Shown: positions 2,478-11,284, counted from the first letter of the stretch. The stretch is 64,000 nucleotides of DNA from Candidatus Saccharimonadota bacterium (GCA_030529135.1 JAUMXO010000001.1:15335-79334); one strand, 5' to 3'. Numbers and translations: made by a program. Notes: generated from the letters alone by a model not told the origin.

Positions 2478-4439
2478 TTATTGTTCCTCCTGTTTTTCAA
2501 CACTACTTATTGTCCCTGGTATTTTAGGGTCTTTACGCTCGATATATTCAAACGTTCCATTGTCTAATTTTGTTTTTATGTCTTCTAATGTAAGAGAGGT
2601 CAATTCTCTGTCGCTCGATAGATAGTAATAGCTCGTCTCGTTTGGTCGCTCATCGAGATTCGCTCCGTTCATTGCAATAACAGCACCAGCCTCCAACTTG
2701 GGACCTTGGCCAGCAACTTCATTATTTCTTAACACTACTACGGAAACATTATCTTTTCGTTCCTGCTCGCTAAATAGAGCTTTCCTCAATTGCAATGCAT
2801 ATGTCATGGCATCTATACCGCATAGACTAGTAGTTTTAAGTTTTTCTAATAGGATTGATTTCTTTTCATCAAATTCTACAGGTTTCAGATTTTCGGTCAA
2901 TAAGTCATATTCATCCCATGGGGATTTCTCTCGCTCTTGTTGCTGTACTAACTCATACATTCTAGAAACAGATTCTTGAAATTCCTGCTGAGTTCTCTTG
3001 TTTTTGCTCTCACATTCAAATCCAATTAGAGGCAACCCCAACTTCGCTCTTGCGATGTCGCCACCCAAAATACTGCTGACCGAATCTGCTCTAACAATAA
3101 ATTTCCCATCCCTAAACTCTAGGTTCGCATGACCATTACCATAATTTTCCCTAGTCATGTTCTTATATTCGCTCTTAAAATTCAGCCCCAACTCGTTAAG
3201 CATTTTTGCATATATCATGTTAAATTCAAAACAAACAACTTCATTGTTTTCTGGCGATATTTGTTCCACATAGTCTAGACTTCTATGTTTTTCGGCAGCC
3301 TCACCTTTCTGATTTGCAGCCATAAATTTATTGTCATAGGTTAGTATGGTGCACATCTTTGCGTATATGTAGGCAGCTTTTTCAAGACTAGAGACATCAT
3401 CAGGCATTTGTTCGAGAATTGCATCTCTAAGTTCTGAATTCAGATTGGCTTTTTCATATAGCGTGTCCTGTGTTTCTGTCAATCGATTCGCAGCACTAAA
3501 GTCTATAAACTGCCCACTCATAAGACGTTTCGTGCGACTTTCCAAATCATCTGGTAATGCGTAATTCTCAATAACTTTATTATCTTTTAGATATTTTGTC
3601 GCTGCATATGCAAATTCCATTTTTGACAGCTGACCTATTTTACCGTCAGGGTCGGTCGTACATATTTCTTTAAGTCTATCTGGAGGTAAAGATAAAAATG
3701 TCAATATATTATCAACTGGCAATACGCATTGCTTACCATCAATAGTTGTTTCATACTGCGTTCCGCGTACTTTTTCAACAAAAGCTCTTGGCGAAGCAAT
3801 TTCTCTAAATTCCTCCAGCCTTTTCTTTTCAGTATCGGATAATTCGCCGAGCTGCCCACTTTGCTCAAGTGCTGCAAAACCTTTAACTAAATCACTTTTG
3901 CTACGAATAGAATCACCGCCACCTATATCAGCCATCCCCTGCCTTATATTTTCTACGTCTCCATAGAATAGTTGCAACGCATTAACAACGCCACTATAGG
4001 GATTGTCTTCAAGCATATGGCGTTTGGCACAAGAATAGTATGCATCAACCGTTAGACATCTTTTTAGGAGTTCTGAATTTACTTTATTACCATTAGATAG
4101 TTCCACCATCTCTGCAGTTCTTAAGAATTCGGCATCTTTACTGGTTGTAAATACATATGATTCTATCCATTTTGGCCTTCCTTCATCTCTAGGGAATTGA
4201 CTGGCATTTGGGTCTAAAATTAAATCTCCGTTTGGGTTAGTGGGTATATCATTGCTCTCGTAGTACGAAAGAACATCAATATCTGTTTCTCCCTCACCCG
4301 ATATTTCATTGGTTTCAGGCGTACTAACAGATTGTCTTTCGGCACGAACTTCATTAGCCATCTTCTGCCACGGATCTTCGCTTTCCGTTGCAGGACTCGT
4401 TTCTATATTGTTGGTTGGGGGAATATTTCCGCTAGACAT
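2478..4439 (-). CDS. large hypothetical protein with putative transglutaminase-like Cys-His-Asp core
   Basis: 653 aa from ATG 4439 (GAGG RBS); VVCFEFNMIYAKML...GHANL...VRADSV pattern. Confidence 0.7.
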   Translation of the reverse strand: MSSGNIPPTNNIETSPATESEDPWQKMANEVRAERQSVSTPETNEISGEGETDIDVLSYYESNDIPTNPNGDLILDPNASQFPRDEGRPKWIESYVFTTSKDAEFLRTAEMVELSNGNKVNSELLKRCLTVDAYYSCAKRHMLEDNPYSGVVNALQLFYGDVENIRQGMADIGGGDSIRSKSDLVKGFAALEQSGQLGELSDTEKKRLEEFREIASPRAFVEKVRGTQYETTIDGKQCVLPVDNILTFLSLPPDRLKEICTTDPDGKIGQLSKMEFAYAATKYLKDNKVIENYALPDDLESRTKRLMSGQFIDFSAANRLTETQDTLYEKANLNSELRDAILEQMPDDVSSLEKAAYIYAKMCTILTYDNKFMAANQKGEAAEKHRSLDYVEQISPENNEVVCFEFNMIYAKMLNELGLNFKSEYKNMTRENYGNGHANLEFRDGKFIVRADSVSSILGGDIARAKLGLPLIGFECESKNKRTQQEFQESVSRMYELVQQQEREKSPWDEYDLLTENLKPVEFDEKKSILLEKLKTTSLCGIDAMTYALQLRKALFSEQERKDNVSVVVLRNNEVAGQGPKLEAGAVIAMNGANLDERPNETSYYYLSSDRELTSLTLEDIKTKLDNGTFEYIERKDPKIPGTISSVEKQEEQ

Positions 4440-4705
4440 ATTTACCTCGCTTATAGCACATAATATAGCTAATATTATATCATAAAGCACATCAATAATG
4501 GGTACTTCGGTGTTTGGATTTGCACACTAATCTTCTATCTTGAAGGTTTCTAGCCTTTGGCAAATGGTTTCTTTGTAGATTGTTAATGCCTGCTTAATTC
4601 TGCTCAGCCAGAAAATAAAATGAGCGCTTGCGCTCTTTTTTGAACGAACCCTACCTCCATTCCGCTTGCGTTTTCCCTAAAAGTATGCTATATAATATAT
4701 ATATT

Positions 4706-6976
4706 ATGTCTACAGCGAAACGAAGAAAAAATACAAAAAGAACTACCAAAAGTTCTAAAACTTCTCGCAAGACCAGCACCAGAAAAGCTGCCGAAAGGGA
4801 AGTGAACGCTGAGTACGAATTACCCGGTGGCTTTTGGCACCAACTGTTCGCAGTCTTTATGATTGCCCTGGCGCTTTTCTTCGTAATTACTTGGTTTGGT
4901 CACGGCGGTTCTTTCTTAAATACCGTTCACGAAACGCTTTTGAAGGGCCTCGGTCTCGCTACCTATTTTATTCCGATGCTCCTAGTTTACCTTGCAGTTA
5001 AAATTTTCCGTTCAGATACCAATCGTGTCGCTATCCCAGTTTATATTGCTGGAATTTTTATGCTATTTTGGCTTACGGGCGTCGGCGCGATTTGGAACAA
5101 CGGCGGCATCGTCGGCGATTGGCTAAATTCCATTATGCTAAAAGCCTTAGATCAAGGCTTTGTCATCGTCATTTACATACTTTTGATATTTATTACTCTT
5201 CTTTTTCTTTTGCAGCTTTCGCCACTCGCTTTCTTTAGAGGCGCTAAAAACATGGCTAAACCTGGCAAAAAAGCCACTCCAAAAGACGTTAATGAATCAG
5301 AGCCAAAGGGTCAACTAGAAATTAAAGTTAACTCCGGTATTTCTGAACCAGCTGCAGCTGCTGCACCAGTCAAAAGTGGCTTCTTGAAACGTAAATCTAA
5401 ATTTGTAGCCGAATCAAAACCAAAAGCTGCCGAATCAGAATCAGAAAAAACGCCTACCGCACTTGTAGCGGTCAATGACCCAGATTGGAAAATGCCATCC
5501 ACTGATCTTCTCACCAAAAAACAATCTCCGGCCGACGCTGGCAACATTCAACAAAATGCCATTATTATTAAAGATACTTTCTCAGAGTTTGGCATCGAAG
5601 TGGAAATGAAAGGCGCTAATGTTGGCCCACGCGTTACACAATATACTCTCAAAGCTCCAGGCGGTGTTAACCTCTCTAAGATTTCTGCACGCGATAAAGA
5701 GCTCGCCTATAAGCTATCCGCCAAGACCGTCCGGATTGAAGCTCCAATCCCAGGCACTCAGCTTATTGGCGTAGAAGTACCAAATATTCGTGCCGAAGGC
5801 GTCTCTCTTCGTGGTATCATCGAATCAGATGAATGGCGTCATGCCAAACATCCACTTACTTTCGCTGTAGGTAAGGATATTTCCGGTAAACCTGTCATAG
5901 CGGATCTTGCAGACATGCGTCACTTGCTTATTGCTGGTACTACCGGTTCTGGTAAATCTGTCATGACCAATACGCTTATTATGTCACTTCTTTACAGGAA
6001 TTCACCTTCTGATATGCGTCTTATCATCGTAGACCCAAAGCGCGTAGAAATGGCCGTTTACAAAGACATCCCTCACCTTCTTACGCCAATTATCAATGAC
6101 ACTTCCAAAGCTCTTTCGGCTATGAAATGGGCTGCTGGCGAAATGGATCGTCGCTATACTATCATGGAGGAGGCCGGCGTTAAAAACATCGTCGATTACA
6201 ACGAAGTCATGGAAGAAAAATCCAAATCCGCCTCCAAAGATTCCAAAGAAGAAGAAAACACTACCGAAAAAATGCCTTATATTGTGATAGTAATAGACGA
6301 AATGTCCGACCTTATGATGCAGGCCTCAAAAGAGCTTGAGCCTTTAATTGTTCGTATTGCTCAGCTTGGGCGCGCCGCTGGCATGCATTTAGTACTAGCT
6401 ACCCAGAAGCCAGTAGTAAAGGTCATTACAGGCCTTATTAAAGGCAATATTCCGTCTCGTATCGCTTTCCGAGTCCTAAGCTCAATGGATTCTCGCATCA
6501 TCCTCGATTCTTCTGGGGCTGAAAAGCTTCTAGGCCAAGGTGATATGTTATTGTCTTCTGAGCAAACTTCCAATGGCCCAGAACGCATCCAGGGCGCTTG
6601 GACTCCAGATGGCGACATTAAAAAAGTTACCGATTTCCTTCGCTCTCAGCGTCCACCTCAGTATAACGACGAAGTCATTGCCCAGCAAGTTGCCCTCAAA
6701 GGTGCTGGCGGCGGTCTTAGCGATATGGATGGCCTCGGTCGTAAATTCGACCCTCAAGATCCGCTAGTTCGAAAAGCCATTGAGATTTGTCTGAAAAATG
6801 GTAAATTCTCTACCTCGCTTCTTCAAACTTACCTCAGTAAATCCCATGGCTACGTATCTGGTCTTGGTGTCTGGCTCGAAGAGCTTGGTGTGATTGGCCC
6901 AGTCAACGGCACCAAACCTCGTGAGCTCCTCATCACCTCAATGGAAGAGTTTGACGAATTAGCTAGTTCTAGTTAG
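4706..6976 (+). CDS. ftsK: DNA translocase FtsK/SpoIIIE
   Basis: N-terminal TM helices, Walker A AGTTGSGKS, IVIDEMSDLM, GRAAGMHLVLATQKP, C-terminal gamma domain; start set at ATG 4706. Confidence 0.95.
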   Translation: MSTAKRRKNTKRTTKSSKTSRKTSTRKAAEREVNAEYELPGGFWHQLFAVFMIALALFFVITWFGHGGSFLNTVHETLLKGLGLATYFIPMLLVYLAVKIFRSDTNRVAIPVYIAGIFMLFWLTGVGAIWNNGGIVGDWLNSIMLKALDQGFVIVIYILLIFITLLFLLQLSPLAFFRGAKNMAKPGKKATPKDVNESEPKGQLEIKVNSGISEPAAAAAPVKSGFLKRKSKFVAESKPKAAESESEKTPTALVAVNDPDWKMPSTDLLTKKQSPADAGNIQQNAIIIKDTFSEFGIEVEMKGANVGPRVTQYTLKAPGGVNLSKISARDKELAYKLSAKTVRIEAPIPGTQLIGVEVPNIRAEGVSLRGIIESDEWRHAKHPLTFAVGKDISGKPVIADLADMRHLLIAGTTGSGKSVMTNTLIMSLLYRNSPSDMRLIIVDPKRVEMAVYKDIPHLLTPIINDTSKALSAMKWAAGEMDRRYTIMEEAGVKNIVDYNEVMEEKSKSASKDSKEEENTTEKMPYIVIVIDEMSDLMMQASKELEPLIVRIAQLGRAAGMHLVLATQKPVVKVITGLIKGNIPSRIAFRVLSSMDSRIILDSSGAEKLLGQGDMLLSSEQTSNGPERIQGAWTPDGDIKKVTDFLRSQRPPQYNDEVIAQQVALKGAGGGLSDMDGLGRKFDPQDPLVRKAIEICLKNGKFSTSLLQTYLSKSHGYVSGLGVWLEELGVIGPVNGTKPRELLITSMEEFDELASSS

Positions 6977-7038
6977 TCCATTTGTCAAGGATTTCTTGAT
7001 AACTGAACCGCGAAAAAAATTTTTTGCAATTCACCACC

Positions 7039-7073
7039 TCTTGAACTTGTAAAATTTTTGTACAAGTTCAAGA
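7039..7073 (+). promoter_or_regulatory. palindromic operator-like site over the promoter of the RhuM-Fic gene
   Basis: TCTTGAACTTGTA-N9-TACAAGTTCAAGA perfect 13-bp arms, just upstream of TGCTACAAT extended -10 (7079-7087). Confidence 0.65.
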
Positions 7074-7094
7074 TGGTATGCTACAATTGATTTA

Positions 7095-8087
7095 ATGAGT
7101 AATAAATTAGAAGTATACAAAATTGAAAAAGGCGAAATCGTCCTTGATATAGACGAAAAAAGTGAAACAATTTGGGCCACCCAAGCTCAAATTGCTCAAC
7201 TTTTTGATGTTAAACCTCAAAATATTACATATCATTTACGCAATATTTATAAAGAAAAAGAGCTTGACGAAAATCGAACTTGTAAAGAATCTTTACAAGT
7301 TCAAGAGGAGGGAGGAGTTTCGGTAAAGCGCAAAGTAAAAATGTACGATCTCGACGCCATCATCTCCGTTGGCTACCGTGTCAATTCCAAAAAAGCCACC
7401 GATTTCCGTATCTGGTCTACCTCTGTTCTTCATAATTATCTTGCCAAAGGCGTCGCTATTAACGAAAAGCGCCTCAAATCCGCCGACAGCAAAAGGTTAA
7501 AAGAAGTCGAAAACATGATGGGCGTTGTGAGACGCCTGATCGCCCACCAGGCTCTTGATGCTGGCGAAGCTAACGGCGTTTTAGAAGTAATTTCTAAATA
7601 TTCCACCAGCTTCCAGACTCTAAAAGAATACGATGATGGTTATATTGATCTTTCTGGCCTCAACAAAAAATCCAAAAAAGAAAAGAGGCTTACCCCAGAA
7701 TTTTGCATTGAGGTCATCGAAGGTCTCAAAAAATCCGTTAAAGGCGGTGATTTATTTGGCAAACCTAGAAACGACGCTTTCAAAGGCTCCATCGAAGGCG
7801 TCTATCAGAGTTATAATGGAGAAGACCTTTATCCTACTGTTGCCGAAAAGGCCGCTCATCTCTTGTATTTTGTCATCAAAGACCACCCCTTTTACGACGG
7901 CAATAAACGCATTGGCTCGTTGCTCTTCATCGTTTTTCTTACAATCAATGGCGAAAATCTTGCTAAAAACGGTGAGACCAAAATCAGCGACCGTGCTCTT
8001 ACCGCTCTAGCTCTGTTGATCGCCGAGTCGGAACCTACAGAAAAAGATCTCATTACCTCTCTCATCCGCAAGCTCTTAGAAGATTAA
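7095..8087 (+). CDS. RhuM-family protein fused to Fic/Doc domain
   Basis: TIWATQAQIAQLF...YDLDAIISVGYRVNS (RhuM); HPFYDGNKRIG (Fic/Doc). Confidence 0.88.
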   Translation: MSNKLEVYKIEKGEIVLDIDEKSETIWATQAQIAQLFDVKPQNITYHLRNIYKEKELDENRTCKESLQVQEEGGVSVKRKVKMYDLDAIISVGYRVNSKKATDFRIWSTSVLHNYLAKGVAINEKRLKSADSKRLKEVENMMGVVRRLIAHQALDAGEANGVLEVISKYSTSFQTLKEYDDGYIDLSGLNKKSKKEKRLTPEFCIEVIEGLKKSVKGGDLFGKPRNDAFKGSIEGVYQSYNGEDLYPTVAEKAAHLLYFVIKDHPFYDGNKRIGSLLFIVFLTINGENLAKNGETKISDRALTALALLIAESEPTEKDLITSLIRKLLED

Positions 8088-8120
8088 GCAAAATTAAAAT
8101 TTTATGCTATAATAATAACA

Positions 8121-9092
8121 ATGGTTGACAAAGATGATATTTTGAATGTAAAAGATTTAAGCCTAGATTTTGATGAGCCAGATGTAAATGACATCGAAAA
8201 CGAGGAGGAGCTTTCCGACGAAGATCTCGCAATTACTCCTGAAAACGTAGATGCTTTTGCGGATGATTCTGTCAGATTATACCTTAGAGAAATTGGTAAA
8301 ATCCCACTTTTGACTCCAGAGGAAGAAGCTGATTTGGCTCAGCGTATTGTCAAAGGTGACAAAAAAGCCAAAGACAAAATGGTCGAATCAAATATGCGTC
8401 TCGTGGTATCTATTGCCAAGCGTTACGGTGGTCGTGGTCTTGATTTTCTTGATCTTATTCAGGAAGGGAATACTGGACTGCTTCGCGCCGTCGAGAAGTT
8501 CGATCCGGAAAAAGGCTTCAAGTTTTCTACCTATGCTACTTGGTGGGTGCGTCAAGCTATTACGCGTGCTATTGCCGACCAGGCTCGCACTATTCGTATT
8601 CCAGTCCACATGGTCGAGACTATTAATAAAGTTCTCCGAACCACTAGAAAACTCACTTCCGAGCTCAATCGTGAACCTACCACCGAAGAAATCGCCGCTG
8701 AACTTCACATGGAACCAGATAAAGTAGACTATGTCATGCGTATCAAGCAAGATATTGCCTCTCTTGATGCTTCAGTCGGTCGTGATGGGGACGATGAAGA
8801 CTCCGTGCTTGGTGATTTCGTAGAAGACGAAGAACGTATTTCTCCAGAAGATTCTGCTGCTAACCAGATTTTAAAGGAGCAGCTTTCCGAAATTATTGCC
8901 ACTCTTACCGATAGGGAGCAAAAGATCATTCGCCTTCGTTTTGGTATCGGTGGTGGTCGTCCGCACACGCTCGAAGAGGTTGGCGCTGAGTTTGATGTCA
9001 CCCGCGAACGTATTCGCCAGATTGAAGCCAAGGCTCTTTCCAAACTCCGCAAAAACAAGGATACCAAAAAATTACACGAATATTTAAGGTAA
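8121..9092 (+). CDS. rpoD: RNA polymerase primary sigma factor
   Basis: [45 protein letters not shown]. Confidence 0.96.
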
Positions 9093-9103
9093 AGGAGATT
9101 ACC

Positions 9104-9508
9104 ATGAAAAAAATTATTCAAAAATCTAAAGTTGCCATTATGGTATTTTTGATGGGAATTAATCTTTTGCCAGCTACTCTTAGTACTGCGCCAGTCTATG
9201 CTGACGAGGCCGAAGGCGCCGCTATTCTTACCGACTGCTATAACAAAGGAAAAGATAGTAAAAATGGTAGTGGGATTATTTGTGTTGTCCAACTTGTAGT
9301 TGATATCCTAACTATTCTAGTAGGAATTTTGGGCGTTCTCGGCATTGTAATAGTTGGTATTCAGTATCTTACCGCTGCCGGCAATGAGGAACAGGTCAGG
9401 AAAGCCAAGCGTCGCCTATTCGAAATCATTCTCGGCATACTTCTATACGTTTTGATTTATGCGCTTCTTAGGTGGCTTCTTCCAGGATGGACCGGGTGGG
9501 GGAGTTAG
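9104..9508 (+). CDS. VirB2/TrbC-like pilin (CPR-type)
   Basis: Signal peptide ending VYA, two TM helices joined by GIQYLTAAGNEEQVRKAKRRL. Confidence 0.72.
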   Translation: MKKIIQKSKVAIMVFLMGINLLPATLSTAPVYADEAEGAAILTDCYNKGKDSKNGSGIICVVQLVVDILTILVGILGVLGIVIVGIQYLTAAGNEEQVRKAKRRLFEIILGILLYVLIYALLRWLLPGWTGWGS

Positions 9509-9548
9509 CAATGTTATGCCACATATTATTTCTAGTATCGGAGCCTAA

Positions 9549-10508
9549 ATGTCTCGCCTTATCTTAGTTTATAACCCCAACTCTTCTAATTATTGTCGTG
9601 TCAAAAAAAATATTTTAGATCAAAAAACCAAATTGTTTGCTGAAAAAAATCTTACCGATTATACCATCAAAAAAATTGGTTTTGAAAATAACGTTAAAAA
9701 CCTTCAAAAAGAACTCAAAAACGGCGACATTTGTCTTTCTCTCGGTGGCGATGCCACCGCTGCTATTACTGCCAATGCCATCATGAGTTCCCAAAAAGAC
9801 GTCACTCTTGCTGTTCTCCCATATGGCAACTTCAATGACCTCGCTAGAACTTTGGGAACGATGAAGCTGGAGGATTTAAACGTTCACAAGCGGACCTCCG
9901 CGACCAACAGGGAGGGTACCGCGAGTAAACCGTTTAAGTCCGCTAGCCGTTTGTACCCTCTCGAGATTTATGTAGACGGCAAATTTTGGCGTTATGCTAC
10001 TTGTTACGTAACCATTGGTATGACCGCCGAAGCAGTTGAACTTTTTGATGAACCAAAATTTAGAAAATATATGCAAAAGGGCCACAAAAGTTCCTGGCGC
10101 TCTTATCTAGAGTTGGCCAAATGGTATTTCAAAAACCGTCGGAAGAAAGTGTTTCTTCCTGAGTTCACTATCAACAAAAATTCCACAGTCAAGAAAGCCT
10201 CTGATTATGCTGCTCTTAGTGGCAAATCCATGTGCCGTGTCATGAAGGGTGGCGACGATTGGAAAAAGCCCTATATTTTTAGGAGTGCTGCCCTAAAAAC
10301 TATCAGCTTCCCAAGACTATTTATCTTGATGGCAAAATCAATCTTGCATCGTACTCCCGGCAGCGATACGAAAGGCGATCTTCTAGAATTCAAGGAACCA
10401 GCTACCGTCGAACTTCAAGCCGAAGGCGAATATCAAACTTTTAAAAATATCAAAAAGATCAAGGTTAAGAAAGGGAATCAATGTTTGAAAGTGATAACAA
10501 AAAACTAG
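9549..10508 (+). CDS. diacylglycerol kinase family protein
   Basis: YNPNSS, LSLGGDAT, LPYGNFNDLARTLG, QAEGE motifs; carries short palindromic insert. Confidence 0.8.
   Translation: MSRLILVYNPNSSNYCRVKKNILDQKTKLFAEKNLTDYTIKKIGFENNVKNLQKELKNGDICLSLGGDATAAITANAIMSSQKDVTLAVLPYGNFNDLARTLGTMKLEDLNVHKRTSATNREGTASKPFKSASRLYPLEIYVDGKFWRYATCYVTIGMTAEAVELFDEPKFRKYMQKGHKSSWRSYLELAKWYFKNRRKKVFLPEFTINKNSTVKKASDYAALSGKSMCRVMKGGDDWKKPYIFRSAALKTISFPRLFILMAKSILHRTPGSDTKGDLLEFKEPATVELQAEGEYQTFKNIKKIKVKKGNQCLKVITKN
9872..9941 (+). repeat. short palindromic element in-frame in DAGK gene
   Basis: Imperfect arms GGATTTAAACG / CGTTTAAGTCC; inner CCTCC/GGAGG hairpin with GCGACCAACAG loop resembling GCGACRACGGGAG of other copies. 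Confidence 0.55.
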
Positions 10509-11284
10509 AACAGGTCATAACATACATGAAAACTCACTGGCCAAGTCCAGTAAAAGACGAGTGGCAAGTCAGTTTAGAAGAATACCCCAAAATTCTAAAA
10601 CAAATTGTCGCGGATTTTACTAAAGATAAGACTAAGAATAAAAATCTTATTCGCATTGCTGGTCTTTCTGGTTCCGGTAAAACTTCCCAAATTCTCCCCG
10701 CTGTAGAAAAATATTGCGAGATGAAAAATTTAAATCCAGTTCTCATCGCTGCTCGTCGTTTCGTAGATTATCATCCGTTCAGAAATGAAATTGAAATAGA
10801 ATACGGTGAAGAAAATTTACGTAAAAACACCGATGAATTTAGTACTATCATGATGTTTTTGAGTTTAAATGCTCTTACTAAAGCTGGTTATGATATTATT
10901 TTAGACGTTACATTACTAGATCCAGAGGTAGAAAATATCTTACTTGGAATGTTAAGAGAGAATAATTATCAAACTATGCTTCTAATGATCGCTACCAGCC
11001 CTACTGTTACTGAACATTTTTTGGGCGGTCGTGGTTGGCGTCATTCTAAGGCGACTGAAGCGGAATTTATTCGTGCCACTAGGGCAGCAATGGAATTCTA
11101 TGCCCAAAACTATCCAGATCTTCACACGATTCTTTGGAGCGTGTATGATCTAGATCCGATTTATAACGGAAAAATCAAGAACGCATTAGATATTTTTCAA
11201 GAATATTCAGAGAAAACCGATCTTCCTAAGTCAAACGATGACGAAAGAAGGGAAGCTAAAATTCAATTTCTTTCAAAACTTTAG
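10481..11284 (+). CDS. zeta-toxin-like P-loop kinase
   Basis: Walker A GLSGSGKT, FVDYHP, YDIILDVTL. Confidence 0.65.
   Translation: MFESDNKKLEQVITYMKTHWPSPVKDEWQVSLEEYPKILKQIVADFTKDKTKNKNLIRIAGLSGSGKTSQILPAVEKYCEMKNLNPVLIAARRFVDYHPFRNEIEIEYGEENLRKNTDEFSTIMMFLSLNALTKAGYDIILDVTLLDPEVENILLGMLRENNYQTMLLMIATSPTVTEHFLGGRGWRHSKATEAEFIRATRAAMEFYAQNYPDLHTILWSVYDLDPIYNGKIKNALDIFQEYSEKTDLPKSNDDERREAKIQFLSKL

Follow-up and report, generated by a model that had tools for sequence, protein, structure and literature searches.

Two copies of one palindrome at a RhuM-Doc gene of a Candidatus Saccharimonadota bacterium: putative docking sites for the encoded protein

The palindrome GAACTTGTA-N9-TACAAGTTC occurs twice at a gene for a RhuM-Doc fusion protein in a stretch of 64,000 nucleotides from a Candidatus Saccharimonadota bacterium (GCA_030529135.1 JAUMXO010000001.1:15335-79334; this whole stretch is called the window, and positions are counted from its first letter). 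One copy lies at the promoter of the gene (site 1) and the other within its codons (site 2), which raises the question of what a single gene might do with the same palindrome at both places. A reading of the sequence alone had proposed an autoregulatory operator pair and, more speculatively, that site and protein would change together. The results presented here give about an even chance that both sites are double-stranded DNA docking sites for the Bro-N-like domain of the gene's own product, with site 1 acting as an operator for autorepression.

Two palindromes at one gene

The RhuM-Doc open reading frame (7095-8087, + strand) encodes 330 amino acids. The Pfam profile Virulence_RhuM (PF13310) matched residues 62-137 with 82.7 bits (cut-off 33.7), and the C-terminal domain was matched by the Fic/Doc profile PF02661 (45.4 bits) and by the Doc profile TIGR01550 (41.2 bits, cut-off 38.65). 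This domain aligns with the Doc chain 9vzc_A and contains HPFYDGNKR (H264-R272; 7884-7910, + strand), in agreement with the Doc active-site motif HxFx(D/N)(A/G)NKR. The PADLOC candidate model PDC-S23, which describes RhuM-Doc fusions, covers the full protein (E=1.7e-116; residues 2-329, profile positions 2-324 of 327), and PDC-S05 models cover the N-terminal part (residues 1-213, E down to 5e-67). Therefore, the protein is a RhuM family member with a Doc-subtype Fic domain, of the PDC-S23 type.

Both copies of the palindrome were found exactly where the sequence-only reading had placed them, at 7043-7069 and 7276-7302, and its translation of the second was confirmed: site 2 is read as CGA ACT TGT AAA GAA TCT TTA CAA GTT CAA, encoding RTCKESLQVQ (R61-Q70). 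The reported 9-bp arms and 9-bp spacer are present, but both sites are longer than had been described. Site 2, GAACTTGTAAAGA-A-TCTTTACAAGTTC, is a perfect palindrome with 13-nt arms (7276-7288 and 7290-7302) and a centre of 1 nt. Site 1, TCTTGAACTTGTAAAA-TTT-TTGTACAAGTTCAAGA, is a 35-bp near-perfect palindrome (7039-7073, including 7043-7069) with 16-nt arms (7039-7054 and 7058-7073) around a 3-nt centre, and 15 of its 16 arm positions are paired (94% complementarity). As palindromes, both sites were listed without a strand. They are alike over 31 nt at 84% identity, and their centres are 233 bp apart. This distance corresponds to ∼22.2 helical turns and would allow looping, without being evidence for it.

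When up to three mismatches were allowed, GAACTTGTA-N9-TACAAGTTC was found twice in the window, compared to 0.04 matches expected from shuffled sequences. In the whole genome of 787,054 bp, the exact palindrome occurs only at sites 1 and 2, and a search with two mismatches gave one further match; this match falls into the 3' end of an unrelated coding sequence and probably arose by chance. The shuffles and the genome search reject a chance origin of the pair. A repeat family or a regulon site was also rejected, since only two copies exist and the near-match lies in an unrelated coding sequence. Site 1 could not be explained as the remnant of an upstream RhuM pseudogene either, as the likeness ends at the palindrome of 31-35 nt.

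A consensus scan predicted a promoter for the RhuM-Doc gene at 7059-7087 on the + strand (9 of 12 positions plus the TG). It probably consists of the -35-like hexamer TGTACA (7059-7064), a 17-nt spacer and the extended -10 element TG-c-TACAAT (7079-7087). Site 1 had been placed just upstream of this -10 element; it does lie at the promoter, but it overlaps it, the -35-like hexamer being part of its right arm. The palindrome thus overlaps the core promoter of the RhuM-Doc gene itself, which is the anatomy of an operator. The mRNA is probably leaderless, given the distance of 7 nt from the -10 element to the ATG and the lack of a visible Shine-Dalgarno sequence; like the promoter, this assignment follows from consensus only.

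No + strand intrinsic terminator was called at site 1 or site 2. A function of site 1 as terminator of ftsK, the gene upstream, was rejected, because no T-run follows the site on the + strand. On the minus strand, site 2 (7274-7304) forms a terminator-like hairpin with 14 pairs and the tail TTTTCG; this could stop antisense transcription, but is probably incidental. In addition, the two sites are part of a 36-nt inverted repeat with 86% identity (7034-7069 and 7276-7311), which flanks the promoter and the first 60 codons in the way the repeats of an inverton would.

The coding palindrome and the predicted N-terminal domain

Site 2 is not special to the RhuM-Doc gene of the window. All full-length homologues that were examined first, from the same bacterial family, have perfect palindromes with 11-13-bp arms at the same codons and with different sequences (for example TCGAACTATTCGA-A5-TCGAATAGTTCGA and AACTATCCGGAA-A-TTCCGGATAGTT). 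The same was observed for ∼190 RhuM genes from many phyla, in which palindromes of differing sequence, such as AGTATGTGCA-A5-TGCACATACT and AACTATTCGA-A5-TCGAATAGTT, are located at these codons, ahead of those for YNLDxIISVGYR. The class of the window, AACTTGTAAr..yTTACAAGTT (encoding TCKxxLQV), is common to genes of Bacteroidota, Cloacimonadota, Acidobacteriota and Actinomycetota, among others. No description of this coding palindrome was found in the searchable literature.

The symmetry was quantified in a set of 108 RhuM genes, 80 of which came from many bacterial phyla and two archaea and 28 from the family of the window, including the window gene. At least 9 of 12 arm positions are paired in 106 of the 108 genes. 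Perfect arms of at least 9 nt were found in 60% of the genes, compared to 2.3% after synonymous-codon shuffling according to the codon usage of the respective gene, and 0% in a second stretch of 30 codons from the same genes that served as control. Both comparisons reject the palindrome as a by-product of the amino-acid sequence. Therefore, the symmetry is selected, or driven, at the nucleotide level. The imperfect palindromes of the family contain 120 mismatches, of which 38 are G:T, 22 A:C and 60 other combinations.

The N-terminal part of the RhuM-Doc protein (residues 1-142) was modelled confidently by AlphaFold2 (AF2), with a predicted local distance difference test (pLDDT) score of 89. 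In the model, three strands are followed by a helix (residues 30-36), a second helix (41-53), a beta hairpin (63-72 and 75-84) and further helices. The predicted domain is thus a helix-turn-helix followed by a wing, the first strand of which (beta4) is encoded by the palindrome of site 2. Codons 41-53 (PQNITYHLRNIYK; 7215-7253, + strand) encode the second of the two helix-turn-helix helices, which is predicted to be the recognition helix. When the model was compared with other predicted structures, phage BRO, Bro-N, antirepressor, Rha and 'repressor domain' proteins were found (E down to 2e-5, probability 1.00, template modelling scores of ∼0.4-0.56). Bro-N is regarded as a DNA-binding fold and is generally grouped with the KilA-N fold class.

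Across the family, the five residues ahead of an invariant histidine in helix 41-53 sort with the class of the palindrome. The helix motif ..E-H occurs together with the palindrome core GGAA..TCC in 21 of the 22 genes that have the motif. For Q[NS][IV]Tx-H, the motif of the window (PQNITY-H), the core TTGTAA..TTACAA was found in 19 of 21 genes, QN[IV]Sx-H is combined with TGTCAA..TTGACA in 9 of 12, and ..[RK]-H with either TGTGCA..TGCACA or TTCCA..TGGAA in 53 of 59. Fisher tests of motif against class gave p values from 1e-12 to 1e-30, with statistics that ignore phylogeny. The association fits a direct read-out of the palindrome by the helix, without proving it.

Upstream copies and exchange of the helix-wing module

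Copies comparable to site 1 were searched for upstream of 79 close relatives of the window's RhuM-Doc protein, derived from metagenomes, of which 66 loci had enough upstream DNA. The upstream regions of these 66 loci contain 34 palindromes, compared to 3 after this DNA was shuffled and 2 in a coding control. Palindromes sharing an arm word of at least 8 nt with some RhuM coding palindrome were called RhuM-type; 21 of the 34 belong to this type and lie within 170 nt upstream in 17 of the 66 loci, versus none in both controls. The proximal copies are centred 23-58 nt ahead of the start codon, where a -35 element would lie. Copies that match the class of their own gene span at least four classes, namely AACTTGTA (window, L210, L271 and L104), CAACCTGT (L174), AGTATGTG (L256, L265 and L266) and AGTTGTCGCA (L275). 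A RhuM-type palindrome within 170 nt upstream was also found in 4 of the 11 Patescibacteria of the many-phyla sample, and in 1 of 45 loci of the window's own family and order (genome-search sample, also Patescibacteria).

Several loci of this lineage show that the helix-wing module, residues 30-84, has been exchanged as a unit, as judged from segment-wise protein identity to the window. Two of them, L212 and L213, have 84-88% identity over residues 85-330 and ∼50% over residues 30-84, while L219 and L221 have the reverse pattern. At the DNA level, the low-identity block of L212 and L213 extends from ∼7195 to 7345, and the palindrome lies inside this block, not at its edge. Both loci, as well as L210, have the promoter of the window, and L210 and L212 also follow ftsK. 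L210, which is 84% identical and has the same module as the window, is identical at 100% over 44 nt that include site 1 and its one asymmetric position; the spacer further upstream is unalignable, and in site 2 only the unpaired central base differs. In both loci with a swapped module, site 1 has decayed: 13 of 16 positions are paired in L213 and 9 of 16 in L212, compared to 15 of 16 in the window and in the identical site of L210. This pattern of two versus two loci only is the one expected if site 1 is read by its cognate module.

Another locus of the same genus, L007 (G196:C9:17328-21155), contains one open frame of 366 aa in which two helix-wing modules, first ..TCSKMEQV.. and then ..RTCKEVLQVQ.., are arranged in tandem, the first with its own perfect palindrome AACTTGTTCCA-AAA-TGGAACAAGTT. 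Judged from its sequence, it looks like an intermediate of module exchange. Abutting arrays of two or three ∼25-bp palindromes of different RhuM classes directly precede the RhuM-Doc promoters of L213 (590-700), L118, L243, L256, L258 and L260. No coding remnants were found between the units of these upstream arrays in Saccharibacteria.

The palindrome GAACTTGTA-N9-TACAAGTTC is also present in 62 viral contigs (L041-L102, IMG/VR) in 28 sequence contexts, in none of them in a RhuM frame, while a control palindrome of the same composition with reversed arms was found in 2 contigs. Many of the viral copies are intergenic hairpins in which ATGAACTTGTAAG-N5-CTTACAAGTTCAT is preceded by an A-run and followed by a T-run, and their relation to RhuM is only putative. 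In one context (L073, L090), a further palindrome, imperfect and belonging to the RhuM class AACTGTCAAGG, lies immediately beside it. In the L049 cluster of 15 viral contigs, the palindrome (e.g. L049:745-771) is in frame in an open reading frame of 115 aa with an HExxH motif (..DRTCKKNLQVQIRKNKRHEIIHAF..), encoding a peptide that is nearly the same as that of RhuM in an unrelated phage protein.

The RhuM-Doc gene stands alone on the chromosome between ftsK and rpoD. No antitoxin-like open reading frame, restriction-modification genes or recombinase adjoin it, no Phd-like antitoxin gene was found at the locus, and no recombinase is present among the four neighbour genes on each side (2478-6976 and 8121-11284). 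The nearest relatives in public genomes are found in metagenome-assembled genomes of Candidatus Saccharibacteria. In an empty-site comparison, the insertion boundaries of the gene could not be defined, since the genes that follow ftsK are different in each of the other five genomes from this genus (L203-L207; metK, rpsF-ssb and others). Because of this variable gene content, the position downstream of ftsK is considered a rearrangement hotspot in the genus. Directly downstream of the RhuM-Doc gene, rpoD has its own extended -10 element, TG-c-TATAAT, ∼8 nt ahead of its ATG (8089-8120), and its mRNA is probably leaderless too; the two promoters have a 25-nt stretch with 72% identity in common. 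Upstream of ftsK, a 670-aa open reading frame (2478-4490, - strand) has no Pfam match. The three genes after rpoD (9104-11284) encode a type IV secretion pilin-like small protein, a diacylglycerol-kinase-like protein and a zeta-toxin-like kinase, the last gene overlapping the preceding one by 28 nt.

Explanations of the palindromes and related systems

In the explanation given about an even chance, a dimer of the Bro-N-like N-terminal domain, with its helix-turn-helix and beta-hairpin wing, would dock on both palindromes. Site 2 would be the window gene's version of a palindrome present at codons ∼61-70 in almost every RhuM gene, and palindrome class and recognition-helix motif would be passed on jointly in one exchangeable unit, the helix-wing module. 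Site 1 would be an additional, free-standing palindrome of this class on the -35 element of the gene's own leaderless promoter. Protein bound there would exclude RNA polymerase and thereby bring about negative autoregulation of the toxin-like Doc kinase without a separate antitoxin, and the two sites might cooperate. With respect to the proposed autoregulatory operator pair, the selection at the DNA level, the overlap with the -35 element, the conservation in L210 and the decay in L212 and L213 speak for it, but it does not hold as a general rule. Likewise, the proposal that site and protein change together agrees with the class of the internal palindrome tracking the helix motif, but the segment encoded by site 2, strand beta4 of the wing, is at most a putative DNA-reading part.

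Several observations weigh against this explanation. The class of the upstream copy matches that of its own gene in only 7 of 16 loci, versus 3.9 expected from the class frequencies, which is marginal (permutation p=0.06). Perfect upstream palindromes of foreign RhuM classes were found in L004, L259 and L263, and a second RhuM gene in the same genome (G096) was rejected as the source of the one in L004, since that genome contains a single copy of this palindrome. Of 67 RhuM loci outside Patescibacteria, only one has a RhuM-type palindrome within 170 nt upstream, and save for this locus promoter copies appear to be confined to Patescibacteria. The covariation of internal and upstream palindromes that the sequence-only reading led one to expect therefore finds no support as a rule for the family, while the link is supported in the window's own lineage. 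Since most family members have no upstream copy, autoregulation through a promoter copy cannot explain the family-wide upkeep of site 2. The helix-palindrome association is confounded, because the palindrome encodes the strand beside the helix and both lie in one recombination unit; intraprotein contacts, or the joint inheritance of a single 55-codon module, could also give rise to it. A fold search of the N-terminal model against the PDB gave no significant match to solved structures, and with 27-35 bp the sites are long for one helix-turn-helix dimer.

An unlikely but serious alternative, drawn by analogy, is that each RhuM variant has, in its coding palindrome, a DNA tag of its own, which would be a self-tag or immunity site similar to the aba element of BstA. 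The Bro-N-like domain would then distinguish its own replicon from foreign DNA or restrain the Doc toxin, and promoter copies would serve autoregulation only secondarily, a use acquired in Saccharibacteria. Palindromes of other classes that stand free, as in the Saccharibacteria arrays and the 62 viral contigs, might be decoys or cross-immunity sites against other RhuM variants. The result would be a one-gene defence system in which recognition helix and own site are swapped as a single cassette.

BstA with aba may be regarded as the closest experimentally studied parallel, comparable in architecture only. BstA is a single-protein phage defence system with a KilA-N-like, putative DNA-binding N-terminal domain and a variant-specific aba element, which consists of 29 bp upstream and the first 34 bp of bstA's coding sequence and functions as DNA rather than as RNA or peptide (Owen et al. 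2021, PMC8585504). As in the RhuM-Doc gene, a cognate short DNA element is carried on the gene itself, each BstA variant having its own aba, and the RhuM N-terminal model matches Bro-N/antirepressor folds. In contrast to the RhuM palindrome at codons 61-70, aba is non-palindromic with terminal CCCGCC direct repeats and is located at the gene start. Furthermore, experiments have established aba as the self-immunity element of a replicating prophage, whereas RhuM-Doc, here known from sequence, is chromosomal between ftsK and rpoD and has an extra copy on the -35 element.

Apart from these two explanations, in both of which the protein would recognize its palindrome, it is rather improbable that the palindrome perpetuates itself without function. 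Quasi-palindrome correction is an established mutational process, and template switching during replication, by transferring a change from one arm to the other, would keep the arms perfect, with site 1 as an accidental duplicate of site 2 that happens to supply a -35 element. Indeed, changes in the palindromes are always paired, the arms are often perfect up to the centre, and upstream palindromes of foreign classes occur without a visible cognate protein. Such a drive leaves unexplained why the palindrome is retained at the same codons across bacteria and archaea despite forced amino-acid changes, why it is associated with the helix motif, why control regions of the same genes contain 0 such palindromes, and why site 1 is placed at a promoter. 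Moreover, the single asymmetric position of site 1 stays uncorrected in L210 at 100% conservation, and site 1 decays exactly where the module was swapped.

There is little to recommend the possibility that site 1 is the operator of another regulator, for instance a Saccharibacteria repressor of the LexA, MarR or XRE type, and resembles site 2 incidentally or through shared DNA ancestry. Its arms do start with GAAC and end with GTTC, but these are 19 nt apart and not 4 as in the LexA/Cheo-box GAAC-N4-GTTC. As no further copy of the palindrome is present in the genome, such a regulator would have no regulon, and the 21 of 34 upstream palindromes in relatives that share arm words with RhuM coding palindromes, versus 0 in controls, point to RhuM instead.

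A function as mRNA hairpin, such as a ribosome pause site, a nuclease site or a translational operator to which the protein binds, with site 1 forming a hairpin in the 3' end of transcripts that read through from ftsK, has equally poor prospects. The two sites fold stably (-14.8 kcal/mol, z=-2.9, and -19.6 kcal/mol, z=-5.6), and G:T mismatches are slightly more frequent than A:C mismatches in the family. However, the RhuM-Doc gene is predicted to be transcribed from a start downstream of site 1, the free-standing copies of relatives are also at -35 positions, and 60 of the 120 mismatches are not compatible with wobble pairing. Pairing is held up to a 1-nt centre, which is unusable as an RNA loop, neither site is followed by a T-run on the + strand, and no Rfam family was matched.

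Least probable of all are crossover sites of a recombinase, either for an invertible promoter or as joints for exchange of the N-terminal module: although the 36-nt inverted repeat, the clear exchange of the helix-wing module between close genes, the tandem modules of L007 and the enrichment of RhuM genes beside genes targeted by programmed inversions (PMC9881135) would suit them, the palindrome of L212 and L213 lies within the swapped block, inversion would create an in-frame TGA at codon 61 and detach the gene from its promoter, nearly all family members outside the lineage of the window have no upstream partner, the neighbour genes include no recombinase, and the targets of inversion in that study are hsdS and not rhuM.

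Own-gene binding sites are known from other systems, such as the ori-lambda iterons in gene O and parS inside spo0J/parB. If the protein docks as proposed, the RhuM coding sequence would likewise double as a cognate site, and site and protein would be inherited together. In contrast to RhuM palindromes, the ori-lambda and parS sites serve replication or segregation, and they are not known as single perfect palindromes whose class shifts together with a recognition helix throughout a family. Palindromic C-boxes belong to the controller (C) proteins of restriction-modification systems. Like RhuM, these small helix-turn-helix regulators occur in defence loci, have diversified into specificity classes and have palindromic operators, putative in the case of RhuM-Doc, at the promoters of their own genes, but C-boxes are found upstream only and C proteins are separate, small and of a different fold. 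The promoters of phd-doc of phage P1 and of other type II toxin-antitoxin systems are autoregulated, and phd-doc resembles the RhuM-Doc gene in its Doc-type toxin domain and in a palindromic operator, putative here, that overlaps its own promoter and keeps expression low. The winged helix-turn-helix of AbiEi is reported to bind inverted repeats in its promoter (PMC7319586, PMC3985639). Unlike these systems, the RhuM-Doc gene is not accompanied by a Phd-like antitoxin gene, its predicted DNA-binding domain is fused to the toxin, and its second site is in the coding sequence, where it is the conserved one.

RhuM and RhuM-Doc genes rank with the most frequent passengers in operons for restriction-modification and in defence islands (PMC3710099, PMC9881135), and RhuM-Doc fusions in restriction-modification neighbourhoods have been proposed to be toxins (PMC3710099). 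In E. coli B, one PDC-S05 gene reduced the plating of T7 and T5 by a factor of ∼1000, and it also blocked T4 (bioRxiv 10.1101/2024.09.26.614923). Anti-phage activity has thus been shown for a single PDC-S05 representative other than the window gene, which by analogy is a candidate. What is new here is the promoter copy of the gene's own class with its pattern of conservation and decay, how often promoter copies occur in Saccharibacteria and in which mix of classes, the exchange of the helix-wing module as a unit and, as a negative result, that own-class matching is not general. The window offers a natural experiment, in which conservation of the helix-wing module goes with conservation of the promoter copy, and replacement of the module with decay of the copy. 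A class-variable palindrome in the codons beside the predicted DNA-reading helix also provides a testable handle on the target of RhuM. If binding is true, RhuM-Doc would be a toxin that needs no antitoxin gene, since its own gene carries the regulatory or immunity site, and a simple rule would predict specificity classes throughout the very large RhuM family.

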